DNA from: Myxococcota bacterium
Lineage (GTDB): Bacteria; Myxococcota_A; SURF-8
Length of the DNA stretch: 64,000 nucleotides
Direction of reading: 5' to 3'
Assembly (NCBI GenBank): GCA_965140415.1
Contig: OZ223209.1
Coordinates: 2,848,001-2,912,000, forward strand
Shown piece after piece: positions 12,428 to 62,699 of the stretch. The notes beneath the pieces were generated by a model that made no database searches, was not told the DNA's origin, and saw only the letters and a program-made list of their open reading frames with translations. The position numbers and the translations under genes were made by a program. Positions within the stretch are counted from its first letter, which is position 1, and each line of letters starts with the position of its first letter.

Positions 12428-14695
12428 CTAGTATTCCAAGCATCCACCATCTACGACATTGCCACTTTGATCCGTTACCGGAATGCAGACTTCGCCCACT
12501 TCACAACTGTTTGGTGTGGCATCACAGGTGCTCCAGCAAAGGTTATCTACACCTGGAGGCAGAATCGGCAAGCCCGCTACCGGTACGCATACTTTAAAGG
12601 GAATGTAACTGCAAACTCCACCAGGATTGTCACAAGGTTCTGCATTCAAGTCTGCGCATAGATCGAAGGGAGAGTCGAAGTCAGAGGCATCGATGCATGC
12701 GACATCCGAATCGCAAGTCGAGATATCGCAACGATTCAAGCAAAGCGAACCCAGTCCTTGCTGGGAAACGCAATAATCCCGACCAGCCGCTTCGCATTCG
12801 GAGTCTGAAGAGCAGGCTGTACATTCGCATGAATCATCATCGCTTGATTGCGGAATGCATTCGCCATCGACATATCCTTTGCCATGACAATAGGTATCGC
12901 AGGTGCGGGTATACCAGTGGTCGTTTACGGTACTACAGCGACAGAGCTGCTCATCGTTTTCGCACCAGTTCCATACATCCTCTGCTAAACAATCTCCGCT
13001 GCAAACCAGAGGCTCATCACCATCGACTATATCGCCGTCGGTAAGATCTCCATCCGGAACGATGTCACCGTCTGTGATGTCTCCATCGGTTAGATCTCCG
13101 TCGATCATATCGCCATCCACAAGATCTCCATCAAACAGGTCGATGTCCAGTTCCTCGTCGCCATCAACCGGGGGATCCGTACAGAAACAAGTGGCAATAT
13201 CTCCCATGATTCCACAACCATTGGAGATCATCTCGTTTGCAGCACAGAGTTCGGAACATGGATATTGCGTCCAAAAGCCATCTTCGCAAATACAGATGTC
13301 TTCGCTGTCTTCCACGCAGAACGTTTCATCAAGAAATACACAACCACCCTCGCAGTCAAGAGGATGCTCCAAGTCTCCATCGGGAATGAAGTCGCCGTCG
13401 ATTAGGTCGCCATCAATCAGATCGCCGTCAACATCACCATCGGAGGAGGCGAGCAGGGCGTCTATCAACGAATTGGATAAGCAACCGGATTGGTCGCCGT
13501 AGTTATCATCCGCAGTTTGCTGGTCGATAATGCCGGCTTCTACCAATTCTTGAGGGGAGAAGCAACGATAGTCGTCTTCCATGCGACATTGCTCGTCCAT
13601 GTCGCATTCAGCCAGACAGATTCCATAGCCTTCATACATCGGACCGAAAATCGGGGCGAGACTGAAGCAAAGACCGCCAAGGGCAGATGGACAACTGCTT
13701 TCCGGATCGGCAAGAGAACAGATGTTGGAGCAATAGCCTCCTGGCATCTCCGTTCCCGGAATAATCGCATCGATGTATTCCGTAGTCATGCAGGTGTCGG
13801 TCATGCATTCGTCGGCTGTTTCGCAAGGATCGCCAATCAGGCCAGTAATAATTTCCAGTTCCTCTTCCATATCCCCATCCGGTTGGACATCACCATCCGG
13901 TTGCACGTCGCCATCGGGCTGGAGGTCGCCATCCGGTTGGACATCACCATCCGGTTGCACGTCGCCATCGGGCTGGAGGTCGCCATCCGGTTGAATATCG
14001 CCATCCGGTTGAATATCACCATCGGGTTGGATATCCCCATCCGGTTGGACATCTCCATCGGGTTGGATATCGCCATCCGGCTGAATATCCCCATCCGGTT
14101 GGACATCTCCATCGGGTTGGACATCTCCATCGGGTTGGACGTCGCCATCCGGTTGGACGTCCCCATCGGGTTGGACGTCACCATCGGGCTGGATATCACC
14201 ATCCGGTTGAATATCACCATCGGGTTGGATATCACCATCGGGCTGGACATCACCATCGGGAGTATCGCCGTCAGGAGTGTCACCGTCAGGAGTGTCACCA
14301 TCAGGAGTGTCACCATCAGGAGTATCGCCGTCAGGAGTGTCACCGTCAGGAGTGTCACCATCAGGAGTGTCACCATCAGGAGTATCGCCGTCAGGAGTGT
14401 CACCGTCAGGAGTGTCACCATCAGGAGTGTCACCATCAGGAGTGTCACCATCGGGAGTATCGCCATCTGGAGTATCGCCATCTGGTTTAACATCTCCATC
14501 TGGGAGAGGATTTTCATCCTCATCACCATCGGCTTGATTGTCACCGTCCTGATTCTCTGTGTCAGTGATTTCAGAATCCATTTCCTGTTCGGAATCATCT
14601 CCATCGGGCAACGTCGGATCGTCGCTGGAAGAACATCCAGAAGTCAGCAAAAGAAAAAGGCTTAAGATGAACAGAGTCGCTGTCCATTTTTTCAT
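12428..14695 (-). CDS. DGD-repeat, Cys-rich lipoprotein
   Basis: Signal peptide II (LTSG-C), a long PDGD repeat stalk, several Cys-rich modules separated by further DGD linkers; RBS AAGGAG before ATG 14695. Confidence 0.88.
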   Translation of the reverse strand: MKKWTATLFILSLFLLLTSGCSSSDDPTLPDGDDSEQEMDSEITDTENQDGDNQADGDEDENPLPDGDVKPDGDTPDGDTPDGDTPDGDTPDGDTPDGDTPDGDTPDGDTPDGDTPDGDTPDGDTPDGDTPDGDTPDGDTPDGDTPDGDVQPDGDIQPDGDIQPDGDIQPDGDVQPDGDVQPDGDVQPDGDVQPDGDVQPDGDIQPDGDIQPDGDVQPDGDIQPDGDIQPDGDIQPDGDLQPDGDVQPDGDVQPDGDLQPDGDVQPDGDVQPDGDMEEELEIITGLIGDPCETADECMTDTCMTTEYIDAIIPGTEMPGGYCSNICSLADPESSCPSALGGLCFSLAPIFGPMYEGYGICLAECDMDEQCRMEDDYRCFSPQELVEAGIIDQQTADDNYGDQSGCLSNSLIDALLASSDGDVDGDLIDGDLIDGDFIPDGDLEHPLDCEGGCVFLDETFCVEDSEDICICEDGFWTQYPCSELCAANEMISNGCGIMGDIATCFCTDPPVDGDEELDIDLFDGDLVDGDMIDGDLTDGDITDGDIVPDGDLTDGDIVDGDEPLVCSGDCLAEDVWNWCENDEQLCRCSTVNDHWYTRTCDTYCHGKGYVDGECIPQSSDDDSCECTACSSDSECEAAGRDYCVSQQGLGSLCLNRCDISTCDSDVACIDASDFDSPFDLCADLNAEPCDNPGGVCSYIPFKVCVPVAGLPILPPGVDNLCWSTCDATPNSCEVGEVCIPVTDQSGNVVDGGCLEY
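13883..14485 (-). repeat. Coding tandem repeat: 15 x 15 bp (PDGDT) followed by 21 x 18 bp (PDGD[VIL]Q)
   Basis: Counted from the DNA: 14261-14485 has a 15-bp period and 13883-14260 an 18-bp period. Confidence 0.92.
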
Positions 14696-14975
14696 AGTTT
14701 TCTCCTTCCACAAAACGGCCTGCATCCTGGCAAACCAGAGGGGATGCTTGATATTTCGGCAAATATTCGCCGTTCAATTAACTGTTTTTAACGTTATCCC
14801 GAATTTTCCATTAAAAAACGAATGCCATGAGACAAATCCCATTGCAAGTCTTTTTAGTGGCCGCTAATACTTAATTGATAATGCGTTTTGGGCCTGATTT
14901 CAACCAAATTCTTAGCTGGCCGTCATCGCAGCACTCAAAACGCCGAAGATTCCCGTAAATTTCCTTGGAGTAGGT

Positions 14976-17096: not shown

Positions 17097-17158
17097 AGTG
17101 TTTCACGTAACCTCATGTCTCATCATTTCTGTTTTCGAAAATCCATAGTAGCAAAAAG

Positions 17159-17191
17159 AAACGCCCCGAACCGTGATGGTTGGGGCGTTTT
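17159..17191. terminator. Bidirectional intrinsic terminator
   Basis: AAACGCCCC-GAACC-GTGAT-GGTT-GGGGCGTTTT between convergent genes. Confidence 0.75.
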
Positions 17192-17210: not shown

Positions 17211-18278
17211 TTACTTGCTGCAATTGGCCTCCGGCGTGCAATAGCCGTTATCCGGGTCGTTCTGGTCGATGCCGATACAGCAGATCAGACCTTGTGAGCT
17301 ATCGCAGTTTCCAACTGTGTCCAGAGATCCGGAGGTCTCAGTGCAGAGATCCTGAGCGCAAAGTTCACCGTCTCCCACCAAGGGAACGCGGCATCGCAGA
17401 CCACTGACCGTGTCGATGCATTGCTTGGGGCAGTCGCAATCGTCACTGACTTCGCAGCGCCCGTTCGGGAAACATTCGATTCCGCCCAGACCATCGGAAA
17501 GACAGTCGTTGAACGGATCGCACATCGAAACTTCGTAAGCGTCACCGGCTGCGTTGCAGGTGAGGATTGCTTCTCCGCCTAGATCGCCCAGGTCGATGCA
17601 GTCTGGATTGCCAGGATCTTCGGTGCAGCAGATTTTCCAACCCGGCTGACAGGCGAAGATGTCTTCACGACAGGTGCCGGCATCACAGATGTAGCCTTCA
17701 CCATAAAGCGTGGTGCAGTCTTCCTGGCTACAGCATTCGGTTGTGCAGGGATTGTTTTCATCCACGCAGCGATTCAAGCGGCAGATGTAGCCCTCACCAA
17801 AATTCGGGTCGTTTTCACAGTCCCAATCCTGGCAGCATTCTTTATCGCAATCGACGATCAGTACGCAGGTGTGCGTGTTTGTGTCGCAGAAGTTGTTTGA
17901 GGGGCAGTCGGCATCTGTGCAGCATTGATATTGACAGACAACCTGGTCGGGGTCTCCACCGACCTGATCACCATCGGTGTTGTTATTGTTGTCACCATCG
18001 GTGGCCGGTTCGAACTTGCCGTTTTCACAGAGATGGTCGATGCAGGCTCCGTTGCATTCATCGTCTTTGATGCAGTATTCTGCTACCGAGTAGCACAATC
18101 CTTCCGGGGAGCAAACCCAAGAAGCCAAGCCGCCCGTGCCGCAGTCTGTCGCTTGATTGCAGGAATCTCGCTCCAGTTCGGAATCTCCATCCGCGTTGTT
18201 ATCACCGCTATCGGAACATCCGGCAATCATGGCCAGACAGATCGCAATAATCAGTAGTATGTTCCACTTCGCTCGCAT
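17211..18278 (-). CDS. Cys-rich lipoprotein with DGD motifs
   Basis: MIAG-C lipobox, SDSGDNNADGD, repeated CC.D.DC...C...C modules; RBS AGGAGG. Confidence 0.85.
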   Translation of the reverse strand: MRAKWNILLIIAICLAMIAGCSDSGDNNADGDSELERDSCNQATDCGTGGLASWVCSPEGLCYSVAEYCIKDDECNGACIDHLCENGKFEPATDGDNNNNTDGDQVGGDPDQVVCQYQCCTDADCPSNNFCDTNTHTCVLIVDCDKECCQDWDCENDPNFGEGYICRLNRCVDENNPCTTECCSQEDCTTLYGEGYICDAGTCREDIFACQPGWKICCTEDPGNPDCIDLGDLGGEAILTCNAAGDAYEVSMCDPFNDCLSDGLGGIECFPNGRCEVSDDCDCPKQCIDTVSGLRCRVPLVGDGELCAQDLCTETSGSLDTVGNCDSSQGLICCIGIDQNDPDNGYCTPEANCSK

Positions 18279-21713: not shown

Positions 21714-23117
21714 TTACTCATCCATATTCTGTACCGCAATCTGAATGAGATCCAGGTAGTATTCGGAAGACTGCTCGTGAGTCAACTTCATATCACTCAT
21801 GCGAATGGCTGCCGCCCATGGGATGGCGTTGAACATGACGCTGTCGAAAATCACACGCTCATCAGCGTTACTGTCGATATCCGAAAGACGATAGCCTTCG
21901 GTGCATCCGTAAAGGTTGATTTTATCGTTTGCAAAGCTATTGCCGGTCGGAATGCCGGGGAAAGAGCTTTCTCCAACTACATGGATAAAGTCTGCGTTTA
22001 AATCGACTAGGCGATCTTCCAAGCCGCCTTCAATGCAGAATTGGTTCATCAGGAATTCCTGACAGGCCGGGCACCAACCCGCGCTGACGAGGATAAACAG
22101 CGTTTTGGTTTCTGGATGATCGCAGCGGTATTGCGCCAGATCGAGACCGGTAATTTCATCGTAATGATACGCGCCGGGCCAGGAAAGTGGGGGTACGGTG
22201 CCGGGTTCCGGTTCTGTTTTACCGGGTTCAGGTCCGAGGAAGTAATAAGGAGGTTCTGGGTACCCGCAATCCACTTCAGGCTTGTCCAAGTGGACGTAAC
22301 CGGGATCTTTTACCATAACGGAAAACGTATAGGTATCCAGGCACCAGACATCGCCGTTTTCAACCGGAGTGGTCGTCATATCCTGTGCAATCGTGACCTG
22401 CTGTAGCGCAACGTTATTGAAAGTAACGCTCAACATATCTCCGGGGACATCGCTGATTTCGCTGATTACGATTTCCCCGCCTTGAGCCGGCATATAGGTT
22501 CGACCGCAATAGCGGACTCCCTGGTCGTTGTAATCGCAGTTGTACTCAAAGACCATGCAGTTGGCGCAGGTTGCATAACTGGTTTCATCTTCACCGATCG
22601 GATACGTTCCAGGCTCTGTCGGGGCTCCATTTCCTTTCCACATTTCAAAACGGAGTACATTCATGGGATAACGGGCTTGTGAATAGCCTTTATAAGACCA
22701 AAGAGTTTCGTCCTGATCGTCTAACAGAAGGTCTACACGTTCCACTTCGGGAGCATAGCCGGTACGATTGCAGGAGAGTTGAGGAATATCGCCATCAACA
22801 TTTGTGTCACCATCGGTGGTGTCGCCATCTACGGTTGTGTCCCCATCAGGAGTATCTCCGTCGATTACATCCCCGTCCGTGTTGTCGCCATCTACATTCG
22901 TATCTCCATCGATACCATCTCCGTCCGGCTCTGTGTCTCCATCTGTTGTCGTGTCGCCGTCACTCGATGTGTCAGTTTCAGATAATTCGGAATCTCCATC
23001 CGTGGTGTTGCCGGTATCATCATCGTCTCCACAACTATAAATTGAAATGGAGAGGAGAACGATCAATGCAAAATGTAGCATTGTTTGTGTCCAAGAAGGA
23101 AGGGGGGCTTTAGTCAT
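21714..23117 (-). CDS. DGD-repeat lipoprotein with a C-terminal thioredoxin-like domain
   Basis: IYS-C lipobox, about 11 DGD motifs, C-terminal LFILVSAGWCPAC; RBS AGGAG before ATG 23117. Confidence 0.82.
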   Translation of the reverse strand: MTKAPLPSWTQTMLHFALIVLLSISIYSCGDDDDTGNTTDGDSELSETDTSSDGDTTTDGDTEPDGDGIDGDTNVDGDNTDGDVIDGDTPDGDTTVDGDTTDGDTNVDGDIPQLSCNRTGYAPEVERVDLLLDDQDETLWSYKGYSQARYPMNVLRFEMWKGNGAPTEPGTYPIGEDETSYATCANCMVFEYNCDYNDQGVRYCGRTYMPAQGGEIVISEISDVPGDMLSVTFNNVALQQVTIAQDMTTTPVENGDVWCLDTYTFSVMVKDPGYVHLDKPEVDCGYPEPPYYFLGPEPGKTEPEPGTVPPLSWPGAYHYDEITGLDLAQYRCDHPETKTLFILVSAGWCPACQEFLMNQFCIEGGLEDRLVDLNADFIHVVGESSFPGIPTGNSFANDKINLYGCTEGYRLSDIDSNADERVIFDSVMFNAIPWAAAIRMSDMKLTHEQSSEYYLDLIQIAVQNMDE

Positions 23118-23295
23118 AGGAATCTCCTGCTGTGTAATGTTCCGGTTGTATCTCGCCAAAGGTCGATTATTTTTCGTTTATAGCATGGGCGAAATTGGTT
23201 GTTGATTGTCCTTAGCGTGGCCAGTCTTCTTCCAAAATTACTACGATAGGAAGCCGAAAGGTAAGATATGCCACAGTAAAAGTAATATTGTCCAG

Positions 23296-23354: not shown

Positions 23355-25163
23355 TTAACCGCAGAAGTCGCCGATGTAGCACATGGTGCTGTCGCCGACC
23401 GGACCGCAGCAGCCACCGCCGTAACCGGAGGCAGTACAGTCGCTGTCGCTCGTGCAGTCTCCCGCACACCAGGAAACACCGCAGTAACCTTCCACACACA
23501 CACCGCGGCTACCGACAACGGAGGCGCAGTCGGCTGCGGAAGTGCAGGGGGCAGGTTGGGAGGTGCTGGCATCGGCATGCATTCCAATGCAGTTCAGACC
23601 AGACTGACAGTTTCCGGCATCGGCATTGACCGAACCAAATGCACAGGCTTCACCCGCAGCCTGATCGCCAGTGCCACCACCACAGAAGTCTGCAATGTAA
23701 CACATGGTATCGCTTCCGACCGGGCCACAGCAACCACCGCCATAACCGGCAGCATTACAATCCGAATCGCTAGAACAGCTTTCAGCACACCAGGCAACAC
23801 CGCAGTAACCCTGAGCACATTCGCCACGGCTACCGACAACAGCGGTACAATCCGCGTCGCTGGTACAAGCTGCCGGTTGAGAAGTGGAAGCGTCGGCGTA
23901 CATGCCGATACAGCTCGCGCCGCTTTCGCAATCGCCGGCGTTGGCATTGACAACACCGAAGGTGCAGTCTTCACCAGGAGCCTGATCGCCAGTGCCGCCG
24001 CTACAGAAATCCGCGATGTAGCACATGTTGTCGCTTCCGACCGGACCACAGCAGCCACCGCCATAACCGGCAGCATTACAGTCCGCATCGGTCGTACAGC
24101 TTTCAGCACACCAAGAGACTCCACAGTAGCCTTGGGCACATTCGCCACGGCTACCGACAACGGCGGTGCAATCCGCATCGCTGGTGCAAGCTGCCGGTTG
24201 AGTGCTGGAAGCGTCGGCATACAGACCAATGCAGTTTCCGCCGCTTTCGCAATTGCCAGCATTGGCATTGACAACACCGAAGGTGCAGTCTTCACCAGGA
24301 GCCTGATCGCCAGTACCGCCGCTACAGAAGTCCGCGATGTAGCACATGTTCGTGTCGCCAACCGGACCACAACAGGCGCCATTTCCGAGCGCCGAGCAAT
24401 CGGCGTCCGTATTACAGGCCGCGGTGCACCAGGAAACGCCGCAATAACCCTGGGCGCAAACGCCCTGGCTGCCGACGACGGAAGTGCAATCCGAATCGGT
24501 CATACAAGGAGCGGGTTGGTCCGTGTTGGTATCCGCGTACATACCGATGCAGTCGTAACCAGATTGGCAATCACCGGCATTGGGATTGACTACGCCGAAC
24601 GTACAGGCACCACCCGGTTGTCCGGGATTGACAACGGTGTCTTCCACACAAGCGCCGTTTTCTTCATGATAACCATTGTCGCATTCGCAACGATTGGTCA
24701 TGGTGTTGCAATGCGCATGAAGTGGGCAGCCACCGCAAGGATCGCTGGTGTCGCCGTCGACCACGTTGTCGCCGTCAACTACATTGTCACCATCAACTAC
24801 ATTGTCACCGTCGACTACATTGTCACCATCAACGACATTGTCGCCGTCAACGACATTGTCGCCGTCAACTACGTTGTCGCCGTCAGTGGTGTTATCACCA
24901 TCAACAACGTTATCACCGTCAGTCGTGGTGTTGTCGCCGTCAGTCGTCGTGTTATCGCCGTCGGTCGTGGTGTTGTCGCCGTCTGTGATCGGCGGGTTAT
25001 ACGGATTGTTGGGGTTGTTGGGGTTGCTGGGACCGTCACCATCGGCGATTGTGGTATCACCATCGGTGTCATCGGTGTCTTCATCTTCGCCGCCGCAGCC
25101 GAAAGCAAACAGGGCTAAGATCAGCACTGCCAGCAAAAGAATAGAGTGCCATCTTTTTTCCAT
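23355..25163 (-). CDS. DGD-repeat lipoprotein with four ~107-aa, 14-Cys repeats
   Basis: FAFG-C lipobox, DGDNTTT/DGDNVV stalk, an EGF-like segment, then four copies of the Cys module; RBS AGGAGG before ATG 25163. Confidence 0.88.
   Translation of the reverse strand: MEKRWHSILLLAVLILALFAFGCGGEDEDTDDTDGDTTIADGDGPSNPNNPNNPYNPPITDGDNTTTDGDNTTTDGDNTTTDGDNVVDGDNTTDGDNVVDGDNVVDGDNVVDGDNVVDGDNVVDGDNVVDGDNVVDGDTSDPCGGCPLHAHCNTMTNRCECDNGYHEENGACVEDTVVNPGQPGGACTFGVVNPNAGDCQSGYDCIGMYADTNTDQPAPCMTDSDCTSVVGSQGVCAQGYCGVSWCTAACNTDADCSALGNGACCGPVGDTNMCYIADFCSGGTGDQAPGEDCTFGVVNANAGNCESGGNCIGLYADASSTQPAACTSDADCTAVVGSRGECAQGYCGVSWCAESCTTDADCNAAGYGGGCCGPVGSDNMCYIADFCSGGTGDQAPGEDCTFGVVNANAGDCESGASCIGMYADASTSQPAACTSDADCTAVVGSRGECAQGYCGVAWCAESCSSDSDCNAAGYGGGCCGPVGSDTMCYIADFCGGGTGDQAAGEACAFGSVNADAGNCQSGLNCIGMHADASTSQPAPCTSAADCASVVGSRGVCVEGYCGVSWCAGDCTSDSDCTASGYGGGCCGPVGDSTMCYIGDFCG
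23358..24620 (-). repeat. Internal coding repeat of about 321 bp, four copies
   Basis: The anchor GCCTGATCGCCAGT recurs at 23659, 23980 and 24301 (321-bp period); a more diverged copy lies upstream in the gene. Confidence 0.88.
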
Positions 25164-25326
25164 AACCTGATTCCTCCTTAACATTTCACACATGGCGTTG
25201 CACTACAATAAAACGGTTTTCTCTACCATGATTCTTTACCAAGAGTCAATTGAAAACCTGTATCCGCTACATGGCACAACGCCGACCAGGGTTAAAAACA
25301 AGTAATTTCAAGAATAAACACCTTGT

Positions 25327-26625
25327 TTATTCGCAAAAATCGCTGATATAGCACATGTTGTTGCTTCCAACCGGACCACAGCAGCCGCCGCCGTAACCGG
25401 ATGCCGTGCAATCCGAGTCGGTGGAACAACTTTCAGCGCACCAAGAAACACCACAATATCCTCCAACGCACACTCCGGTGCTACCAACTGTAGAGGTACA
25501 GTCAACTGCCGTCTCACAAGGGGCTGGGCTTGAAGTAGATGAATCGGCATGTAAACCGATGCAGCTAGAACCGGATCGGCAATCACCTGCATTTGCGTTT
25601 ACCATTCCAAAGGTACAAGGTTCGCCAGGTGCTTGATCTCCTTCAGGCGGTTCTTCGCAGAAGTCTCCAAGGTAACACATGTTGGAATCTCCGACCGGAC
25701 CGCAGCAACCGCTTCCATATCCTTCATCATTGCAGTCTTCATCGGTGGAGCAGTCTTCGGCACACCAGGAAATTCCGCAGTAACCGTCCGCACATACACC
25801 ACGACTTCCAACGACGGAAGTGCAATCCGCGGCTGACGTACAGGGGGCAGGTTGAACACTGCTGGCATTAGCGTGCATGCCGATACAGTTAGAACTGCTG
25901 TCGCATTCATTGGCCGTGGCATTAACCGAGCCGAAAGGACAGGGAGCGCCGGGACCGGATTCGACTGTGCAAAGGACGCAACCGCCGTTTTCTTCACAAT
26001 AGCCGTTGTCGCATTCACATTGATCAGTGCTTTCATTGCAGTGAGAATGCCAGGGACAGCTACCTCCGCAGGGAAGTCCTTGGTCTTCATCTTCATCGCC
26101 ATCGGGTTGAACGTCGCCATCCGGTTGGTCATCACCATCGGGCTGAAGGTCACCGTCGGGCTGATCATCGCCATCGGGTTGATTATCACCATCGGGTTGG
26201 TAGTCGCCGTCGGGCTGGTAGTCACCATCAGGCTGATCATCGCCATCGGGCTGGTAGTCACCATCGACTACGTTGTCACCGTCGACTACATTGTCGCCAT
26301 CGACTACATTGTCGCCATCGATTACGTTGTCGCCATCGACTATATTGTCGCCATCGACTACATTGTCGCCATCGACTACATTGTCGCCATCGACTACGTT
26401 GTCACCATCGACTACGTTGTCACCGTCTGTGGCGTTATCGCCGTCTGTGGTTATTGGAGGATTCACCGGATTCCACCAACTGGAATCGTCATCGCCATCG
26501 GATTGATGAGTATCGCCATCGGGATCGTCGTTATCATCCACATCATCCTCGCCACCGCAACCCAATACAAGCTGAGACAGGATAAGCGAAACCATTACAA
26601 GCCAATACCATCGTTCACGTCTCAT
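25327..26625 (-). CDS. Paralogous DGD-repeat lipoprotein with two copies of the 14-Cys module
   Basis: LVLG-C lipobox, 9x DGDN[VI][VI] plus 9x DGDxQP, an EGF-like segment and two Cys modules homologous to the neighbouring gene. Confidence 0.88.
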   Translation of the reverse strand: MRRERWYWLVMVSLILSQLVLGCGGEDDVDDNDDPDGDTHQSDGDDDSSWWNPVNPPITTDGDNATDGDNVVDGDNVVDGDNVVDGDNVVDGDNIVDGDNVIDGDNVVDGDNVVDGDNVVDGDYQPDGDDQPDGDYQPDGDYQPDGDNQPDGDDQPDGDLQPDGDDQPDGDVQPDGDEDEDQGLPCGGSCPWHSHCNESTDQCECDNGYCEENGGCVLCTVESGPGAPCPFGSVNATANECDSSSNCIGMHANASSVQPAPCTSAADCTSVVGSRGVCADGYCGISWCAEDCSTDEDCNDEGYGSGCCGPVGDSNMCYLGDFCEEPPEGDQAPGEPCTFGMVNANAGDCRSGSSCIGLHADSSTSSPAPCETAVDCTSTVGSTGVCVGGYCGVSWCAESCSTDSDCTASGYGGGCCGPVGSNNMCYISDFCE

Positions 26626-33910: not shown

Positions 33911-33912
33911 GA

Positions 33913-46423: not shown

Positions 46424-46730
46424 TCGCTCACTTAGTCGAAACAGACCAATCCTGAAAGACATGGCTCTGGCTTTATATCGGTCCCGTTCCATCGGTGGTA
46501 ATCGTTTCCTAAAAAGAGAATCGTGTTCTTTTTCTACGACTTCAGTGCTGCAATACGGCCCCTTCAAAATGTAATCGATACAATCCAAAAGTTACGTTAT
46601 GCTAATACATCATTGAATGTCAAGACAATGCGGACGGCTTGTTCTCATTCTAAAGCGGATCTCCATCAAACTCGGATTTGGTTTGTTGTGTTGCAAGCTG
46701 CGCTAACGTACCACTTTCGGTAATGCGAGT

Positions 46731-48828: not shown

Positions 48829-48838
48829 GAGTATACCC

Positions 48839-50098
48839 ATGTCATCTTTTCAATCTGTAAAAGGCTGTGGGCTGGTTGTCTTGGTACTTACTGTCTTATT
48901 GCCAATGATGGCCTGCGAGTATGATCCTCCGCCGGAAATCGTTTCTTCCGTTCCGGAAAGAGGTGGAAATATGACGGGCGGTGATGGAAACCTGGAAATT
49001 GAGTTTTCAGAGGCCATCAAGCCGGAAACGTTGGAATTGGGGCTATGGACCTTGCAACTGGATGAAGAACAGGAACTGCTGCCCCCCTGTAGCTCTGAGA
49101 AAACCGAGCAATGTTCAAAGCGACTGGCTGGACCCTGTCGTTTTGATTTGTCTTCCGATCCCACTATCAGCGATCAAGACAGTTGCTTGTGCAGCCTCGT
49201 TCAAAATTGTCCGGGCGCTGAAATGAGCCTGCAACTGGATTGTCGCAATTTCATAAAATATCAAAACAGTTGCGCTCAAGTTGATCAAAGCGTTGAAAGT
49301 ACAGAAGAAAAGTCTCTATTGACAGTCAACCCAAAACAGGATTTGGGAATTGGAACATACGTGTTGCGTGTTTCTGCGGGCCTTTCGGATTTGTCAGGAC
49401 ATGATACCGGCGCTCCCTTGGATTTTACTTTCGGTGTAACACCGGATGTAGGTGATACGGATGGTGATCAGACGGATGGGGATGGGACAGATGGAGATGA
49501 AGGGGGAACTCCCACCGAATTTGAGTCAGGGGTTTTTGTCACCTGGATGGATCTGGATCAACCCTTCGATTATCCACTTGAAGTGTATTGGATTTTCGAT
49601 GTGAATCCAAATACGGGGCGTGTCACCGGTACGGGGTGTGATGCCGACCCGATCGATGTCAACAACTGGAATCGCGACCTCCACAAGCATGAAGAGGTTA
49701 TGCCATACCCTTACTATGTTTCAGGGTACTATTTCAATTTTACTGCCACCGTGAGCGATATCGACGTAGATGGTGAACCTGGTTACTATTTCGATACCGA
49801 TCCTTTCGTGATTTATTCGGCGACTCCGATTACCGTTGAAGTGGCCGATGGCAAGATTCAGGTTAGTATTGTCTATGATGAGGCGCTTGGGCGGGAAAAG
49901 ATGATCGGTCTGCTCAATTCTCCTGAAACATACGTTTTCGGCGATCATACCAACAAGGAACCCAGTGTTGCCTCCGGGGCGGTTTATGGGTATCGCTTGA
50001 CTGATGAGGAAGTGGCCGCTTTGAAAGATGCTTTTCCCGATGCCTATGGAAAATGCGAATCCAGAGATTATGTGCCCAGCCCGGAAGATGGACCATGA
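48839..50098 (+). CDS. Lipoprotein with an Ig-like (Big_5-type) domain and an internal DGD linker
   Basis: MMA-C lipobox, PPEIVSSVP...IEFSEAI...YVLRVSAGLSDLSG, DTDGDQTDGDGTDGD; RBS AGGAG. Confidence 0.75.
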   Translation: MSSFQSVKGCGLVVLVLTVLLPMMACEYDPPPEIVSSVPERGGNMTGGDGNLEIEFSEAIKPETLELGLWTLQLDEEQELLPPCSSEKTEQCSKRLAGPCRFDLSSDPTISDQDSCLCSLVQNCPGAEMSLQLDCRNFIKYQNSCAQVDQSVESTEEKSLLTVNPKQDLGIGTYVLRVSAGLSDLSGHDTGAPLDFTFGVTPDVGDTDGDQTDGDGTDGDEGGTPTEFESGVFVTWMDLDQPFDYPLEVYWIFDVNPNTGRVTGTGCDADPIDVNNWNRDLHKHEEVMPYPYYVSGYYFNFTATVSDIDVDGEPGYYFDTDPFVIYSATPITVEVADGKIQVSIVYDEALGREKMIGLLNSPETYVFGDHTNKEPSVASGAVYGYRLTDEEVAALKDAFPDAYGKCESRDYVPSPEDGP

Positions 50099-50305
50099 AT
50101 CTTATTTGGCAAGGGAAAGGCATCGAACTGACCTTCTTTGCTTCTTATCTTAAAAAATTAGAAAAAACCGTATGATCGGTATCATTTTTCTTTTGGTCTG
50201 CAAGTTGTAAACAGTCTATAGTAACGTCACGTATTACCGAAGTAACCATTTTTCATAAGAGCTGGGCTCCCCGGCTTCTTATCTTTGTATTGCTGGAGGT
50301 ATGGA

Positions 50306-53300
50306 ATGAAGAAGTTATTTGTATCTTGGGTGCTGTTGTTAGCTTGTGTGTTCCTGATCGTTTCCGGATGTTCCGACTCTTCCGAGCAGGACGAAAACCC
50401 GGATGGGGATTCTATTGTTGATGGCGATGGAACGGATGGAGACGGAACGGAAGATGAACCGGAATGCCGCTTCATCGAAGATTGCGAGCAGGGGCAAGAC
50501 TGTGTCAACAACGAATGTGTAGGAACCGATACTTGTCGCGATCAGTATGATTGTCGCGACGATCAGATCTGCTGGTACGATGAGGATTCCGTAAACGGCC
50601 GGTGTTTGGTGTATTGCGCCACGGATATGGACTGCGATGAAAGCGGGCAGTGTATCCGAGGTCTGTGCGAGAAGTATATCGGAATAGAGGAGGGCGACCC
50701 GCCACCGAAACATGAGGACTGGAATGGCAAACTGCATGCCCAGTTTGTACAGGATTTCCTTGAATTCCCAATGACCGTCACAATGGGTGGGTATGGCTTA
50801 CGCAAAGGACCACTCGGGCCTTACCAAATTGCAATGGGCGGCTCGGCTGGCATTTACGATCGATTGTTTGTCAAGGCTCTCACGCTGGATGACGGTAATG
50901 ATCGCGTGACTTTCGTCAGCATTCCAATGTGTTTCCCCACGGATTATCTTGTGATGGGAATTGTCAAGGAAGTGATCGCATTGGGTGGTCCGGATCTTCG
51001 TCACAATCTGGTTGTAAATGCTTCCCATACGCATTCCGGTCCGGCGGAATATTGGAACCTGCTGCCGGGGATGGGATTTGGTACGTTGGGATTCAGTGAC
51101 TTCAGCTACGAAATGTACCAGCGGTTGACGAAATCGATTGCAAAGGTTGTGTATGCTGCACAGCAAGAATTGAAACCGGCGGCCTTTGGTTACAAGATCA
51201 ACGAAAATTTCGATCCTGATGATCAAATCAATGCGGATCGACGTTCCTTGTCCGGTCATCTTAAAGACAATCGCCTCGTAGTCTGGCGCATTGATGACAT
51301 GTCAAGTGGTTCTGCTGAACCCTGGGTGATAACGCTGAATTATGCGACTCACGGCACCGTGGAAGGGCAAAGCGATACTCGATTGACCAACGATTCGGCT
51401 GGTGGCGCGGAAAACATGACCAAGTTGCTCTATGAAAAAGACCATCCCGGAAAAACCATCAATACGATGTTTTTCAATGGGATGGCCGGAAATGTCAGCC
51501 CGCGCGGTGGTGACAAGGGGCATAGTCATGCTCAGCGCATGCAGGTTATCGGCACGCGTGTGTATGACAAAGTCATGGAATTGTTTGAACAAATCGACCC
51601 AAGCGATGAAATCGATGTAAAAATGGTCTCCAAGCGGGTACCGATCGATCGCAATTACATTGGTTATGCCGACGATGAATTTTACAGCGATGGCGTTAGT
51701 TTATTCGAACCAAAACCCGGTGGTCCGTTCCGTTTCGGTGCATTCTATTGCGGCTCATCCACCACGGAGCCTGAGGAGAACCTGAATATACATGTATATG
51801 ATTCTTCTCAGAATTTAGTTAAAGAGGCAATGGATACCACTTCCAATGGAAAAACCGACAAGTTGGAGGATGGTACCGAGGTGCAGTGGGATGGTGAAGA
51901 AGTGATTTTCACCGCTAGCGAAACAGGGAAACATACCATCCTGGTCGACGGGTACAAGGGCTGCATGAGCGATTATGTTCTGAGAATCACCAAGGTTAAC
52001 GTGGGCAGCAAGCGTGGGGCGTTGTGCTTGGATGCAAGCTGTGGCGCGATCTGTGGTGCCTGTCCGACTATGAAAAGCGATCTGCCGCCATTGGTTTGCA
52101 ACGAAGATACAATGGAAGAAAACGATTCCAGTTCCGCCGCGAAAGATTTGAGCTTTACGGATGGAAGTATTGAAGTTCAGAATTTGCAGGTTTGTCCGAA
52201 TGATGAAGACTGGTTCTCTTTCGATGTCGTCGAAGGAGAGCAATACAGCGTGAGAGTGATGTGGCATCAGGATGATGAAGCCTATAATCCTGAAACTCAC
52301 ATTAAAGACGGAAACCTGGGTTGCATGTTGAATATCGAGATCATGAACCATGGTCCAATGCCGATGTTCGGCAAAACGCGCTTCACCGGAATTTTGCTTG
52401 GCGATCTGTATTTGGCTGGTCTGCCGGGTGAATCGAGTTCCCGTATGGGATATGATGCCATCGAGGCCCTTTCCGCAGAAACCGATTTCGCTGATATCGT
52501 CATTTTTGGATACACTAACGACCATCACTTCTACATCTCCACAGAGCAGGATTGGATGCAGGGTGGCTACAACACCATGATGTCCATTTGGGGAATGAAA
52601 TTCGGCCAGTTCTGTATCGACCACCTGAAAGAATTAGCAATTGCCGTTTCAAATGGAACGGAAGAAGAGACCGTAAATGAGTTCCCACAGGTTAAGCCCT
52701 TGGTTTATAAAAACCTGGAAGCTCCTCTTCGCGTACCCATTAAAACCGCCAAACCCACGGAAACCTCTATTCTCATTCAGCCGGTGGATCATCGTCGCAT
52801 GCAGCAGATCGCAACCATGCAGTGGATCGGCGCCGACCCCGGCGTAGATTTCCCTCATGTTTACTTGGAACGCGAGAATACTTCTGGAGAATTCGAGCCT
52901 GTGTTGCGTGAGTCCGGGTTGGTATATGATGATCGTTACTACGAGATATCGCTTACCTATGCCAATGAATCCTTTGCCTACCCCGGCATTCAGGATGCAG
53001 ATACCAACAATTACTGGACGTTGTATTGGGACGAAACAACAGATTTCCCCCTTGGAACCTATCGTTTCCGGGTCGAGGGGCACTACTACAATGGTCCGGA
53101 AGACAGTTTCGACAATGAGACGGGTATCGAAGCCTATGAATTGCTAAGCGATCCCTTTGAGCTGTTGCCGGCAACAATCGAAGCGCAAACCGCGAAAATC
53201 GAAGAAGGTGTGTTTAAATCGTTCCTGCTATACGGGCATCCGGCCACCAATGATGATGGCGAATCGGACTTCGAACGCTTCAGTCCGGTTGGAACCAAAC

Positions 53301-53635
53301 TGCATAGCGTGGAAGTGCATCCCATGGTTGGACCGAGACTATCGGAAAACGTGGATGACAGCACCATCGCGATAACGATTTTCGACGATCAGGACCAGGA
53401 AGTGTCCACCATTGACAGCTATACGCTTGAGCGACTGGAAAGCGGAGTTGTACAGTATCCGGCAGGACGAACGGAAGGTGTTGTATTCATGAGTAATTAC
53501 GGTGGTCCGGTCACGCAACTATCTGCAACCTTGCCCGCGTTGGATGCTGGTGATTATCGTTTGCATCTTGATATGGAAGATAGTTTTGGCAATGCCGGTG
53601 AGTTCGACTACAACTTCACCGTAACTGTACCGTAA
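50306..53635 (+). CDS. Neutral/alkaline ceramidase-family lipoprotein with DGD tether
   Basis: VSG-C lipobox; SHTHSGP, NYATHGT, AGNVSP, LPGE, GYTND..Y, GGY motifs. Confidence 0.8.
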   Translation: MKKLFVSWVLLLACVFLIVSGCSDSSEQDENPDGDSIVDGDGTDGDGTEDEPECRFIEDCEQGQDCVNNECVGTDTCRDQYDCRDDQICWYDEDSVNGRCLVYCATDMDCDESGQCIRGLCEKYIGIEEGDPPPKHEDWNGKLHAQFVQDFLEFPMTVTMGGYGLRKGPLGPYQIAMGGSAGIYDRLFVKALTLDDGNDRVTFVSIPMCFPTDYLVMGIVKEVIALGGPDLRHNLVVNASHTHSGPAEYWNLLPGMGFGTLGFSDFSYEMYQRLTKSIAKVVYAAQQELKPAAFGYKINENFDPDDQINADRRSLSGHLKDNRLVVWRIDDMSSGSAEPWVITLNYATHGTVEGQSDTRLTNDSAGGAENMTKLLYEKDHPGKTINTMFFNGMAGNVSPRGGDKGHSHAQRMQVIGTRVYDKVMELFEQIDPSDEIDVKMVSKRVPIDRNYIGYADDEFYSDGVSLFEPKPGGPFRFGAFYCGSSTTEPEENLNIHVYDSSQNLVKEAMDTTSNGKTDKLEDGTEVQWDGEEVIFTASETGKHTILVDGYKGCMSDYVLRITKVNVGSKRGALCLDASCGAICGACPTMKSDLPPLVCNEDTMEENDSSSAAKDLSFTDGSIEVQNLQVCPNDEDWFSFDVVEGEQYSVRVMWHQDDEAYNPETHIKDGNLGCMLNIEIMNHGPMPMFGKTRFTGILLGDLYLAGLPGESSSRMGYDAIEALSAETDFADIVIFGYTNDHHFYISTEQDWMQGGYNTMMSIWGMKFGQFCIDHLKELAIAVSNGTEEETVNEFPQVKPLVYKNLEAPLRVPIKTAKPTETSILIQPVDHRRMQQIATMQWIGADPGVDFPHVYLERENTSGEFEPVLRESGLVYDDRYYEISLTYANESFAYPGIQDADTNNYWTLYWDETTDFPLGTYRFRVEGHYYNGPEDSFDNETGIEAYELLSDPFELLPATIEAQTAKIEEGVFKSFLLYGHPATNDDGESDFERFSPVGTKLHSVEVHPMVGPRLSENVDDSTIAITIFDDQDQEVSTIDSYTLERLESGVVQYPAGRTEGVVFMSNYGGPVTQLSATLPALDAGDYRLHLDMEDSFGNAGEFDYNFTVTVP

Positions 53636-53791: not shown

Positions 53792-55588
53792 TTACTTTTC
53801 TTGCGGAAGCTTCGTCCAGCGACCGATCCAGTAGGCGGACATGAAATCAACGCCAGGAAGCAAGCGACTTCCATCGCTTCCACTATTGGGACGGTAGGGG
53901 TTACTGCGCCATTCATAATTACTGGGAGGGCGAATTCGTTTCGGAACTGGCTCTTCGCAGATGAGGTCACCTTTTCGACCGATTGTTCCTAGTACCACCA
54001 TCTCCGAATCATCGACCATTGTACAGATACCGTTATTGATTTCTTCCTCATCGCAATTCATGATGCCGTTTTCCCAATAAGGTGCGTCTGAGAATTCTTT
54101 CAATGTTTCCAAGCCTCTAGCCACGACATCTTCATGTAATGCCCCGTCAGGATCGGAAAAGGCGGTCCCATCCAATTCAGAGGCTGCATAGATGAAATCA
54201 TAAAGGCTCATCTTTTGTTCCACCGGCTGCATCACCATGTCCGGCGTGTCGTATAATTGGACGGCGATGGCTTCGCGCAGAATGTCGCGGGCGGCTTGAT
54301 CGTCGATGTAACGCATGGCAAGCCAGGCGGATGTGAACGCCATACTGTAATTACTGAAATTCGTTTGATATTCCATATTAATGTAGATCATGCTGTCGCG
54401 AGCGAGTTCCGGCAGTTTTCGTTCTGCGATCAGTTCGTCATACAGGTAACTTTGAGCGTCTGGGTCACCGGAAGCATAGGCATAGGCACCGACAATGCCC
54501 AGTGCCATCATGGCGTAGAACCCGTTTTCGAAGGTTTCCAGGTGCATGGCTCGTTCAACGCAATGCTCGTTGATGTAACCGTGGAAGGTGATTCGACCAT
54601 CGGCATCCGGGAATTGGAGATCGTAGCCATCCTCTCGAACGACACGCATGGCGTCTAATGCCTTTTTCGAGTCGGAGCGGATGCGAGTTTTCAACTCTTC
54701 AGGGAAAGAGTCATCTGGACCGATTACTTCCATCGTGACCGCGCTGGCTGCCGCCCAGCCCAGCATCATGTCGCGGCTACAGGAATCTTCCCAGAAATAA
54801 TCGGGATATTCGCCGGAATTGTCTTCACGCCATTCGCCGTTGCTCTTTTCTTCCGGTAGGGGATTGCCACTCCCATCGAAAAGGGGCACCAGTTCATCGT
54901 TATCTCGAATGGCCTGTGCATCGCCGGGAAGCGTGTTTTTTATGAAACCACGTGCCACGACACCGGGAACACCGCCAATAGTGAAGGCGATATGCAGGCC
55001 ATCGATCGCTTTAAGCAATTGTTGGCGAGCGATTTCGATTTCATCACAGTCTGCGCCACGGTCACGAAGCACCGCGTAGCGAATGGCATCGGCAACGATT
55101 CCCATGCCGCCATATAGCCCAGCTACTTTTTGCCAACCGCTCACGACATCCAGTGCGGTTTTGCCACCGGAATACTCTTCGAAACTCCATAAATCACTAT
55201 CGCGTACAAAGGAGTTGATTTCATCACGCGAGGCTGTGTCGTCAAGTGGAACTGCCACATCGACACTGACGGCCATCGGATAGCCGTTAAAATTGTGAAA
55301 ACTACGTTCGTAGCGGCGAACCTTGGCAGCGAGATCCGCATCATAGCCTTCTTCGTCCGGACCGGGAATCATGTGGCGATCGGTAGTCGCGTTTGTGCCA
55401 CAGGCTGGCCAAGCCGAGGTTGTGTCTTCGTTATCGGTTTCCGAATCTCCATCGACGGGGTTGTCATCATCTCCATCCACGTTATTGTTATTGCCGGAAT
55501 CCGAGCATGAAAAGACTAGGAGTGCAACAATAACAAGTAATAACAAGTGGATATGCGGGGTTTTAATGCATCTTGAACGTGCAGTCAT
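53792..55588 (-). CDS. Hypothetical lipoprotein with DGD tether and a large helical domain
   Basis: VFS-C lipobox, SDSGNNNNVDGDDDNPVDGD; RBS AAGGAG. Confidence 0.8.
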   Translation of the reverse strand: MTARSRCIKTPHIHLLLLVIVALLVFSCSDSGNNNNVDGDDDNPVDGDSETDNEDTTSAWPACGTNATTDRHMIPGPDEEGYDADLAAKVRRYERSFHNFNGYPMAVSVDVAVPLDDTASRDEINSFVRDSDLWSFEEYSGGKTALDVVSGWQKVAGLYGGMGIVADAIRYAVLRDRGADCDEIEIARQQLLKAIDGLHIAFTIGGVPGVVARGFIKNTLPGDAQAIRDNDELVPLFDGSGNPLPEEKSNGEWREDNSGEYPDYFWEDSCSRDMMLGWAAASAVTMEVIGPDDSFPEELKTRIRSDSKKALDAMRVVREDGYDLQFPDADGRITFHGYINEHCVERAMHLETFENGFYAMMALGIVGAYAYASGDPDAQSYLYDELIAERKLPELARDSMIYINMEYQTNFSNYSMAFTSAWLAMRYIDDQAARDILREAIAVQLYDTPDMVMQPVEQKMSLYDFIYAASELDGTAFSDPDGALHEDVVARGLETLKEFSDAPYWENGIMNCDEEEINNGICTMVDDSEMVVLGTIGRKGDLICEEPVPKRIRPPSNYEWRSNPYRPNSGSDGSRLLPGVDFMSAYWIGRWTKLPQEK

Positions 55589-59365: not shown

Positions 59366-59622
59366 GCGTCGTAAAAGCTTTGCACTGTCAGAGAATCCCC
59401 GCCCGCGTCCCCCGCTGTCACGTTGCTTGCGCTTCGTAGCGCATCTTGCAAAACAGATTGCCAAATTTGTCTCAGAAAATGATGGTATACGCTTGATGAT
59501 TCTATCAAAATGCGTGCGCCAGCAAGATGCTCTCCGAGACAAGCACCGCGCCAGCGAGTTGTTGGAAGTGCTGATCGGTTGAGAAATTCTATTTTTTCAA
59601 ATTGGGGATAGGGCGATTTCTT

Positions 59623-59955
59623 CTATTCGTCTTCGAGATACGACAACGGAGGCGCTTCCTCTAATTCTGAAGCGTTGGTTTCGTCTGGGTTTTCCTGGAT
59701 TTTTCGTTTCCGCTCGTTATGTGCCAGCGTGTTGATATTGATAATATGAGTGTTTCCGCAGGTGTTGCAGACGAGTAGGACACAGCGAACCTGTTTATTT
59801 TTTATTTCGCGCACGTTTGACATGGTGCCCAAACGCAGGAATAACAGTTCGGGTTCAAGTTCCCAGTCGCTGCCACCGCAAAGGGCGCAGGTATCGACCT
59901 TTTCTTGAAGAATTCGCTGGATTTCCGAGATTGAGATCGAATTTTTTGTCGCCAT
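59623..59955 (-). CDS. Small putative zinc-ribbon protein
   Basis: CALCG...CNTCG pair and an acidic tail; start taken as ATG 59955. Confidence 0.6.
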   Translation of the reverse strand: MATKNSISISEIQRILQEKVDTCALCGGSDWELEPELLFLRLGTMSNVREIKNKQVRCVLLVCNTCGNTHIININTLAHNERKRKIQENPDETNASELEEAPPLSYLEDE

Positions 59956-60081
59956 TCGTTTCCCGATTCGTATAGTTATGTGGTGACACTTGCATTCTGC
60001 ACGAAAAGATGAGAGAAAAATAACAGGTTTTTTAGGTAAATTCAATATAAAAAAGATTTTGACGAAAGGCGTGGGAATCTC

Positions 60082-61341: not shown

Positions 61342-61345
61342 TCGG

Positions 61346-62008
61346 CTAGCGCAGGGATGAGTCACCGACACTTTTTGACACGGGTTGAAATGCTGCTCTG
61401 ACGCGAGGGCGCATTAGATAGTAAACGATTCCTGCATGAAGAATTACAAACGTGATCACGACCAAGGTCCAGACCCGAAGAAATGTCGCGACCATGTTTT
61501 CCTGGTTTACATCCAGTCCCATACCGGAATACAGGGTATAGATGACACGTGCAAGATCGGGAAGAATGTAATAGCCGGAAACGGCCAGGGTGACGGTGGC
61601 TGAAACAATAAACCAGATTTCCAGTTGGCGTCCCCAATCGCGACGCATCAGGATGCCTATTCCGGCGATCAAGCCAAGCAGAGAAAGTAGAAAACTAGCC
61701 GTGTCGTATAGAGGACGCTGTGGGAAAATATGCTTGATTTCCTCCATGGATTTGTCTAATAGCTTTTCCGTTCTCGGGTCTGCGCGGAGTTGATTTAACT
61801 GCTGTTTGATTTCTTGTGGCAGGCCTTTTGTAAATTCATCAAATAAGGATGGGGATTGCTCGACGTCGCTGACTTCAACTGTCAACCAGCCGTTAACGGT
61901 ATACCAGCAGCCGATTGCCCCTAAAATGATCCCGGTTATGGCGAGCAGGAGCAATCCGTCGGGCAAAGGCAGCGGTTTGTGATTGAGTTTAAATTGCTCA
62001 TCCAACAA
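61346..62008 (-). CDS. Hypothetical four-TM membrane protein
   Basis: Four hydrophobic segments; overlaps the upstream gene; ends YYLMRPRVRAAF. Confidence 0.7.
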   Translation of the reverse strand: MLDEQFKLNHKPLPLPDGLLLLAITGIILGAIGCWYTVNGWLTVEVSDVEQSPSLFDEFTKGLPQEIKQQLNQLRADPRTEKLLDKSMEEIKHIFPQRPLYDTASFLLSLLGLIAGIGILMRRDWGRQLEIWFIVSATVTLAVSGYYILPDLARVIYTLYSGMGLDVNQENMVATFLRVWTLVVITFVILHAGIVYYLMRPRVRAAFQPVSKSVGDSSLR

Positions 62009-62699
62009 AGCGATCTAGTCCTTTTCTGCGTGTGAACCACAGGGTCAACCGCGCTCCGGTCAATAAGATAAGCCAGAACCAGAGACTGGGTGCGCCTGTT
62101 TGATTCCCGCAGGAGAAGGGGCTGTCGCTGCCACTGTCATCGTCTTCCTCCGTATCGTCACCATCCGTACTGCTGGAACTACTTCCCCTGGGACAATCCA
62201 TATCGGCAGGCAGGCAGACTTTATCCCCGGTGACGACATCCGCGCAGCAACCAGAGGAGCAATCGGAATCGGATTCGCATAGGGATGCACACGCGGTTCG
62301 ACCGGATTCGATGACGATGCACAGTTCCCAGGAAGTGCAAGTGTTTTCGCCGCAATCGCTGGTTTCAACGGAATTGCCGTCATCACCATCGGTGCTGTAA
62401 GTTACGTCGCCGTCCGACATCGTTCCGCCATCACCATCGGTGGTGGTGGTCATACCGCAATCATCTTCGGTACCGCAGATCCAGGCGGTGTATGGTACAG
62501 AAATCCGCGTGCAACAAGTAGTTGGACATTGCAGATTGGTTTGGCAGATCATCCAGCAGGATTCTCCATCACCGCGATCCAGGCACAAATAGTGTTCCGG
62601 GCAGGTCGTGCCACCACAGGCGACGCCGGCATGTGCGGGGAATGTTTGCAATAGAAAGAAGACGCATAGGAATGTTGCTATGGCGATAGCTTTAATCAT
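61998..62699 (-). CDS. Secreted Cys-rich protein with DGD linkers and a putative C-terminal sorting signal
   Basis: Signal peptide ending AHA, two Cys modules, DGD linkers, C-terminal Cys, hydrophobic segment and RRK. Confidence 0.78.
   Translation of the reverse strand: MIKAIAIATFLCVFFLLQTFPAHAGVACGGTTCPEHYLCLDRGDGESCWMICQTNLQCPTTCCTRISVPYTAWICGTEDDCGMTTTTDGDGGTMSDGDVTYSTDGDDGNSVETSDCGENTCTSWELCIVIESGRTACASLCESDSDCSSGCCADVVTGDKVCLPADMDCPRGSSSSSTDGDDTEEDDDSGSDSPFSCGNQTGAPSLWFWLILLTGARLTLWFTRRKGLDRFVG

Follow-up and report, generated by a model that had tools for sequence, protein, structure and literature searches.

How diderm bacteria outside the Bacteroidota choose which of their lipoproteins to expose or release is largely an open question. 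Within the Bacteroidota, a short lipoprotein export signal (LES) follows the lipidated Cys. Specifically, the consensus described for Bacteroides fragilis is SDDDD at +2 to +6, where its position is critical, and the hydrolases of outer membrane vesicles (OMVs) in Bacteroides thetaiotaomicron are described as carrying S(D/E)3, which according to the same accounts is absent from periplasm-facing lipoproteins (PMC5080379, PMC6222051). The signal of Capnocytophaga is given as C-X-K-(D/E)2, and Bacteroidota-specific Lpt subunits are said to export LES lipoproteins (10.64898/2026.10.03.756453). Here, we analyze an Asp-Gly-Asp (DGD) tripeptide that lies shortly after the lipidated Cys of many lipoproteins encoded by a Myxococcota genome, starting from one 64,000-nucleotide stretch of it (G000:C1:2848001-2912000, hereafter the window). 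The source genome, G000, is one contig of 5.98 Mb with 52% GC. In this genome the DGD tag is genome-wide, position-fixed and not a matter of chance, and we put at roughly 45% the probability that the module it defines serves in sorting or recognition and, in addition, begins a disordered acidic tether.

Determinants near the lipidated Cys have been described in other diderms as well. The surface lipoproteins of Acinetobacter baumannii that depend on type II secretion (T2SS) and GspN are reported to carry GGG or ND(N/D) at P2′-P4′, and a G/S- or N/D-rich P2′-P8′ stretch is needed (PMC12802150). For Myxococcus xanthus FibA, the residue at +7 is reported to decide export, and an A27D substitution retains FibA in the outer membrane (PMC3222651). 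In structures of Escherichia coli LolCDE, a substrate stretch of three residues within +12 to +16 is described as docking in a cleft of LolE (PMC12846838). Disordered lipoprotein linkers are also described as needed for Lol trafficking in Gram-negative bacteria.

A preliminary description of the window had listed ten secreted proteins with DGD motifs, including eight lipoproteins in which the first DGD begins 10, 9, 11, 11, 13, 9, 11 and 10 residues past the lipobox Cys. When the genes were re-translated, these eight positions matched exactly, and a signal peptide and lipobox were present in every case (TSGC, IAGC, IYSC, AFGC, VLGC, FAGC, VSGC and VFSC, respectively). The other two secreted proteins have internal DGDs only. 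The ten genes are as follows.

12428..14725, minus strand: lipoprotein gene, a 765-aa open reading frame (ORF) whose cargo gave no match in Pfam; lipobox Cys codon at 14633-14635, first DGD at 14597-14605 (10 residues after the Cys); acidic tether at 13877-14632, holding most of 55 DGDs.
17211..18278, minus strand: lipoprotein gene, 355 aa with a Cys-rich cargo; Cys codon at 18216-18218, first DGD at 18183-18191 (9 after the Cys); short tether at 18144-18215.
21714..23159, minus strand: lipoprotein gene, a 481-aa ORF with lipobox IYSC and 12 DGDs; Cys codon at 23031-23033, first DGD at 22992-23000 (11 after the Cys); tether at 22800-23030.
23355..25193, minus strand: lipoprotein gene, 612 aa with a DGDN(V/T)(V/T) array, paralog of 25327; Cys codon at 25095-25097, first DGD at 25056-25064 (11 after the Cys); cargo of three 107-aa modules, encoded by a 321-bp tandem repeat at 23362-24348 (3.1 copies, 79% matches).
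25327..26625, minus strand: lipoprotein gene, 432 aa with 22 DGDs; Cys codon at 26557-26559, first DGD at 26512-26520 (13 after the Cys).
38439..42206, minus strand: lipoprotein gene, 1255 aa with 14 DGDs; Cys codon at 42144-42146, first DGD at 42111-42119 (9 after the Cys); tether at 41922-42143.
50285..53635, plus strand: lipoprotein gene, likely start 50306, with a neutral-ceramidase-like N-terminal cargo domain; Cys codon at 50369-50371, first DGD at 50402-50410 (11 after the Cys); short tether at 50372-50455.
53792..55588, minus strand: lipoprotein gene, 598 aa, whose cargo family is widespread in Myxococcota-type metagenome-assembled genomes (MAGs), with other tether styles there; Cys codon at 55505-55507, first DGD at 55469-55477 (10 after the Cys).
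48800..50098, plus strand: contrast lipoprotein without the N-terminal DGD module; lipobox MMAC, Cys codon at 48914-48916, mature start EYDPPP; internal DGDs only, the first at 49460-49468 (182 residues after the Cys); Big_5 Ig-like domain.
61998..62888, minus strand: contrast protein with an ordinary (non-lipoprotein) signal peptide; DGD only in linkers, at residues 151, 159, 167 and 242.

The cargos of the eight lipoproteins are mostly unrelated, as had been proposed; by clustering, only 23355 and 25327 are paralogs. In a Pfam scan of the eight, seven gave no match at all, and the label "ceramidase-like" was borne out for the remaining one (PF04734, E 2e-15). The DGD arrays of the window are encoded by imperfect tandem DNA repeats of 15 or 18 nt with 68-93% matches. 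The paralog 25327 has two modules of the 107-aa type, modelled by AlphaFold2 at low confidence as helix-strand-strand-helix-strand-strand.

The genome-wide frequency of the motif was determined in a set of 4418 non-overlapping ORFs, defined by our own rules and covering 91.6% of the genome. Lipoproteins were called throughout by our own lipobox regular-expression rules rather than by SignalP or LipoP. A strict expression gave 424 lipoproteins and misses many true ones, and a relaxed, hydrophobicity-filtered predictor gave 597. The latter figure corresponds to 13.5% of all 4418 ORFs, an unusually high share that is comparable to that said of the Bacteroidota and in this respect resembles the setting of the LES. 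Unless another offset is stated, we refer to lipoproteins with their first DGD at offset 6-12 after the lipobox Cys as carriers. In the strict set, DGD occurs in 287 of the 424 lipoproteins versus 520 of the 3994 other ORFs, and the first DGD clusters at offsets 7-11. Carriers number 163, compared with 14.3±3.6 (maximum 26) when the first 43 mature residues were shuffled 1000 times. With circular rotation, under which repeats stay intact, the count was 51.1±6.3 carriers (maximum 72). The tripeptide itself also stands out, with 187 occurrences of DGD at offsets 6-12 versus 17 of DTD, 16 of DSD and 11 of DAD. Relative to composition, DGD is found at 9.9 times expectation in lipoproteins, 5.7 times in ORFs with signal peptidase I (SPI)-like signals and 2.5 times in the remaining ORFs, where the array-bearing cases that were inspected are mostly mis-called starts masking a signal peptide. 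Among 556 lipobox-free ORFs with an N-terminal hydrophobic segment, only 50 have DGD within 60 aa downstream of that segment. Chance or composition is ruled out as the cause by the shuffle and rotation controls.

In the relaxed set of 597 lipoproteins, 335 have DGD within 45 aa, the 232 carriers among them, and 262 have none. In the 232 carriers, the mean first-DGD offset is 8.9 with a standard deviation of 1.5, which places the first Asp of DGD at about +10 to +11 with Cys as +1; overall it lies at +8 to +14, with a mode of +10. The module thus runs from the lipobox Cys through a flexible, G/S/D/N-rich stretch of 7-11 residues to the DGD, after which (DGDxx)n or (DGDxxx)n repeats or a generally acidic sequence often come. 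The residue preceding DGD in the strict set is mostly T, P, V, A, S or I. Low-hydrophobicity tethers in carriers range from 1 to 252 aa (median 31), and their disorder is weakly indicated by a single-sequence AlphaFold2 model of the 25327 protein, in which residues 24-260 have almost no secondary structure and predicted local distance difference test (pLDDT) scores of 28-57 (28-46 except for one block of 57 right after the signal peptide).

Such a segment need not be read by anything. DGD-rich sequence may simply be the form that the disordered acidic tether takes in this family, the first repeat unit merely following a short G/S/D hinge, and we regard this as a serious if rather unlikely contender that the predicted disorder would suit. 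Several features of the module argue against it. The offset is independent of tether length (r = -0.12), with means of 8.5-9.1 across bins from <20 to >100 aa. In 59 of the 232 carriers the tether is <20 aa and a folded, often Cys-rich domain starts a few residues past the DGD; therefore, the DGD in these proteins is not part of a long stalk. Moreover, among the 41 strict-set lipoproteins that contain a single DGD, 14 have it at offset 7-11, and the repeat-preserving rotations described above, with 51 carriers expected, account poorly for the 163 observed. Taken together, these observations show that the position of DGD is fixed relative to the lipidated Cys and not to the cargo.

With respect to the residues ahead of the DGD, carriers and non-carriers are indistinguishable in signal peptide and lipobox, and diverge from +2 onward. 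S, G, D and N predominate at +2 to +7 of carriers, and the consensus at +2 to +6 is [S/G]-[D/S/G]-D-D-D (S 0.36 or G 0.31, then D/S/G, then D at 0.39, 0.44 and 0.38), whereas non-carriers are patternless here and often have K or R. This is nearly the B. fragilis form of the LES, likewise a short, position-dependent acidic motif after the lipidated Cys. With regard to the LES pattern of a polar or basic residue ahead of at least two D/E within +2 to +6, 140 of the 232 carriers combine two or more D/E at +3 to +6 with an absence of K/R from +2 through +6, versus 56 of the 262 DGD-free lipoproteins. Unlike in the LES, however, the invariant element is DGD at about +10 to +12, which lies outside the LES window. 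The G/S- or N/D-rich stretch directly after the Cys is shared with the Acinetobacter T2SS/GspN motif, which there marks lipoproteins that leave the periplasm; no DGD forms part of that motif in the account cited above. The M. xanthus signal belongs to the same phylum and likewise places its determinant several residues past the Cys, but it is a single Ala at +7 where Asp blocks export, in contrast to the acidic triplet seen here. What is new in the present module is an invariant tripeptide in a fixed register from the lipid anchor, with or without repeats following.

Two groups of lipoproteins depart from this scheme at their N-termini. Three large lipoproteins (G000:C1:4161466-4169520 and 3338611-3342591), a small paralog group, begin with C-DWF(E/Q)WEEP ahead of DGD, an aromatic-acidic N-terminus unlike the usual G/S/D stretch. 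Another paralog group (G000:C1:292547, 460019, 4484377 and 5184582) begins with C-S-[SDG]-[DS]-[TS]-D-A-[GS]-[DE]-[IV]-A followed by a conserved LxDRLTDALDF; these proteins have an acidic start without DGD, which may be a separate N-terminal domain.

The repeats that often follow the first DGD bear on a further proposal, namely that the Asp pairs bind Ca2+ or Mg2+, which would either make the stalk stiffer or link the segment near the anchor to phosphates of lipopolysaccharide. DxDxDG loops bind calcium, and a DGDxDGD period of 4 recreates such a loop. This spacing occurs 102 times, and the strong Asp richness of these lipoproteins, with their 9.9-fold excess of DGD, would also suit cation binding. 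Nonetheless, spacings of 5 residues (1081 cases) and 6 residues (695 cases) dominate, unlike those of the DxDxDG calcium repeats of EF-hand-like or thrombospondin type 3 families, and no calcium-repeat family was matched in Pfam or NCBIfam. The only NCBIfam matches were weak, compositional ones to staphylococcal Ser-Asp repeats (28 bits against cut-offs of 1150-2500). The MSCRAMM adhesins (microbial surface components recognizing adhesive matrix molecules) that carry such repeats also have acidic stalks, but these are not homologous to the present tethers, and they occur in wall-anchored proteins of Gram-positive bacteria, where the stalk is on the C-terminal side. Among solved structures in the Protein Data Bank, the sole match to the repeats below E 0.001 was compositional (chain 5vj4_A, "Uncharacterized protein", E 0.0003); the other matches were weaker and due to low complexity, and none represented a relative of solved structure. 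Metal binding alone would also leave unexplained the fixed distance from the Cys and the absence of DGD from periplasmic lipoproteins described below. The Ca2+-stiffened stalk suggested in the preliminary description therefore found no positive evidence, and we consider a cation site improbable.

The coding sequences of the module indicate selection at the protein level, in agreement with the preliminary description. All 16 GAY-GGN-GAY codon combinations are used for the first DGD (GGC in 59%, versus a background of 41%), and the 5′ regions from start codon to first DGD share blastn similarity in only 69 of 26,796 pairs, which rules out a shared, recombining 5′ DNA cassette. With tethers masked, 227 cargos form 141 single-linkage clusters, of which 115 are singletons. 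This excludes paralog expansion, and the term "family of lipoproteins" used earlier does not fit a set of 141 unrelated cargo clusters.

In terms of cargo type, we compared Pfam matches in the 20 stretches of 20 kb richest in lipoproteins of <=650 aa, a sample biased to lipoprotein-dense parts of the genome. It contained 97 lipoproteins, of which 4 with a first DGD at offset 21-45 were dropped, leaving 44 with DGD within 20 aa and 49 without DGD. Among the matches listed for the former are arylsulfotransferase (3), metallophosphoesterase (3), FGE-sulfatase (2), Ig-like domains, CotH, endonuclease I, GH5 cellulase, GDSL lipase and the metallo-beta-lactamase fold; those listed for the latter include tetratricopeptide repeats (4), peptidyl-prolyl isomerase/SurA rotamase (2), ZnuA, peptidase S49, M23, HlyD and OmpA. 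We also located six periplasm-facing families (OmpA, HlyD_D23, OEP, M23, YfiO and rotamase) across the genome, where 13 of their 38 genes are predicted lipoproteins. None of these 13, which belong to the OmpA, HlyD, M23, YfiO and rotamase families, has DGD within 45 aa, versus 39% of lipoproteins overall (P about 0.002, a value that is indicative only, as kin proteins are not independent), and four more lipobox-bearing members that the predictor had missed likewise have no DGD. Cargo types thus partition by the tag: judged by family, carriers appear to be of hydrolase or exoenzyme type, and the periplasm-facing housekeeping lipoproteins are without DGD. The LES shows the same partition, being found on surface and OMV hydrolases and not on periplasm-facing lipoproteins. 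This is circumstantial support for the earlier view of DGD as an export label of a putative surface proteome; nothing points to a modification enzyme, modification having been offered as an alternative function.

Exoenzyme-type cargo at a fixed distance from the anchor could also suit a processing or modification site. A membrane-proximal protease might cut there and free the cargo enzyme from the lipid anchor, or the Asp or Gly might be modified enzymatically, the distance then being the reach of a membrane-bound active site. Asp-Gly is chemically labile through isoaspartate formation. However, no candidate enzyme was found, and many of the proteins have tens of further DGDs that would be equally exposed to cutting or modification, making this reading very improbable.

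A housekeeping gene and a cargo of the window have homologs under names such as Myxococcales, Myxococcota, Bradymonadales and Deltaproteobacteria MAGs, which points to a Myxococcota-like host and sets it apart from the phylum of the LES. Relatives of G000 were sampled at 34-320 kb each and searched with the same predictor, with the following numbers of carriers among their lipoproteins.

Same family, G004: 18 of 32.
Same family, G002: 4 of 10.
Same family, G003: 5 of 23.
Same family, G001: 2 of 19.
Same family, G005: 0 of 2.
Same family, five genomes pooled: 29 of 86.
Other families of the order, G008: 2 of 22.
Other families of the order, G007: 1 of 12.
Other families of the order, G006: 0 of 23.
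Other families of the order, G009: 0 of 7.
Other families of the order, four genomes pooled: 3 of 64.
Same phylum, five genomes: 0 of 35.
Other genomes, 80 loci: 0 of 85.

The tag is therefore a family-level trait, and the lineage specificity proposed at the outset holds. The zero counts in the phylum and beyond also exclude chance or composition, and a GC-content artefact is ruled out by the occurrence of carriers in family members from GC 0.51 to 0.61.

Within the family, the motif is conserved between orthologs. With best hits to G000 at >=50% coverage taken as ortholog pairs, 9 of 10 family-level partners of carriers have DGD at offset 6-13 despite a diverged flanking tether, and 29 of 36 partners of non-carriers have no DGD. 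That the first DGD is retained in tethers that otherwise diverge argues against a tether that is not read. In G004, 18 of the 19 DGDs within 45 aa are at offsets 7-12. Also against an unread tether, DGD in G004 (18/32) is steadier than the acidic patch (9/32), which, unlike in the LES, is often replaced by G/S where DGD stays. At the level of the order, partners of eight carriers divide into three in register, two with DGD elsewhere and three with none, and the order-level genome G008 has tethers of poly-Asp, in runs of 5-30 D, with S/T-DGD-T interspersed further in, as might be expected if tether style were merely a matter of lineage. G006 and G009 have acidic lipoprotein starts without DGD.

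Two further tether styles were seen among these relatives. In G008 orthologs of G000 carriers, a poly-D insert shifts the DGD to offsets 15-17. In G003, a member of the same family, several lipoproteins have long (Gly-Glu)n runs after the lipobox that sometimes end in DGD.

On balance, we tentatively favor a sorting role over an unread linker, a cation site or a processing site, although these readings are not mutually exclusive. The sorting reading is preferred because concerted, position-specific conservation across unrelated genes and genera resembles that of signals read by a common machine. In such a mechanism, a component of lipoprotein trafficking would read DGD at a fixed distance from the acyl anchor, the tag would mark enzymes bound for the cell surface, vesicles or the exterior, and downstream DGD arrays would serve solely as an acidic spacer. 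The module would then be a functional analogue of the Bacteroidota LES and of the T2SS-dependent G/S- or N/D-rich motif in Acinetobacter. A more specific version, which we hold to be doubtful at present, is that one Myxococcota family uses a new sorting code centered on DGD at about +10 to +12, perhaps with the LES-like acidic patch as a second part, that would route several hundred hydrolases to the surface or to predatory or foraging vesicles. The acidic tether itself is one instance of the disordered linkers described more generally for Gram-negative lipoproteins, and the E. coli LolE contact at +12 to +16 lies near the DGD register (+10 to +13). By analogy, a trafficking machine may be able to touch a triplet near this distance from the anchor, which we take as a coincidence of register and not as evidence. 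The E. coli contact is described as sequence-independent, in contrast to a tripeptide that here is >10-fold over shuffles and kept in orthologs.

A number of observations weigh against sorting. DGD is not obligatory: 81 lipoproteins begin with acidic residues yet have no DGD, and conversely the acidic start is missing from 54 of the 232 carriers. Carrier frequency is uneven within the family, from 18/32 (G004) down to 2/19 (G001) and 0/2 (G005). The cargo partition could merely reflect a need of exoenzymes for long tethers. DGD arrays are also present as internal linkers in 36 SPI-like exported proteins, and tether composition differs by lineage on the same cargo, both of which would be natural for a tether that nothing reads. 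Specifically, a lipobox is present in 106 of 120 homologs of the 53792 cargo in public data, of which 7, namely the query and the hits nearest to it, place DGD at offset 6-12 (here 7-9); in the remainder the tether is poly-D, G/T/S-rich or D-A/V, or there is none.

The search for a machine gave results that point in the same direction, with no candidate reader of DGD found. The segment of LolF-like permeases equivalent to the LolE cleft (GGFPYxVRDW) is identical in DGD-bearing and DGD-free relatives, such that covariation of the cleft with DGD has no support; this absence of covarying machinery also suits an unread linker. No match to GspN (PF01203) was found in G000, which is 93.7% complete by marker genes, though two GspD-type secretins score above the family cut-off. 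No Slam match was obtained in G000 either, in a search whose control genomes were likewise silent. Literature searches on DGD or Asp-Gly-Asp motifs in lipoproteins returned nothing relevant, and those on Myxococcota lipoboxes or acidic linkers nothing on point.

Regarding the permeases themselves, G000 encodes two unlinked LolF-like paralogs that are 54% identical (L201 961-2295; L202 1495-2829). Compared with solved LolF, both contain a ~37-residue insertion within the periplasmic domain, and their neighbors are ordinary (LolD and BamA for one, TilS and ROK for the other). In G008, the sole strong LolF-like match (G008:C1:744325-745715) is interrupted by either a frameshift or a TGA in frame, which may mean that the gene is broken, that the sequence contains an error or that a stop codon is recoded.

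Whichever reading holds, G000 is a very large natural data set on lipoprotein exposure: ~230 unrelated proteins with a sharply positioned tripeptide, ~260 DGD-free internal controls, and the same cargos on other tethers in sister lineages. If the sorting code is real, sequence alone would suffice to predict the proteins that an uncultured group places on its surface and vesicles, a portable tag for Myxococcus could follow, and this would be the first such signal outside the Bacteroidota to be defined by an invariant tripeptide rather than by charge. If DGD is only a linker habit of this family, the data would still clearly document how a low-complexity segment has evolved in concert, at the protein level, in hundreds of genes.

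Finally, the window contains two further large ORFs that neighbor each other. One (42380-46588, minus strand) encodes 1402 aa, and the other (46822-48828, plus strand) encodes 668 aa with an ordinary signal peptide and a long S/E/P-rich region.

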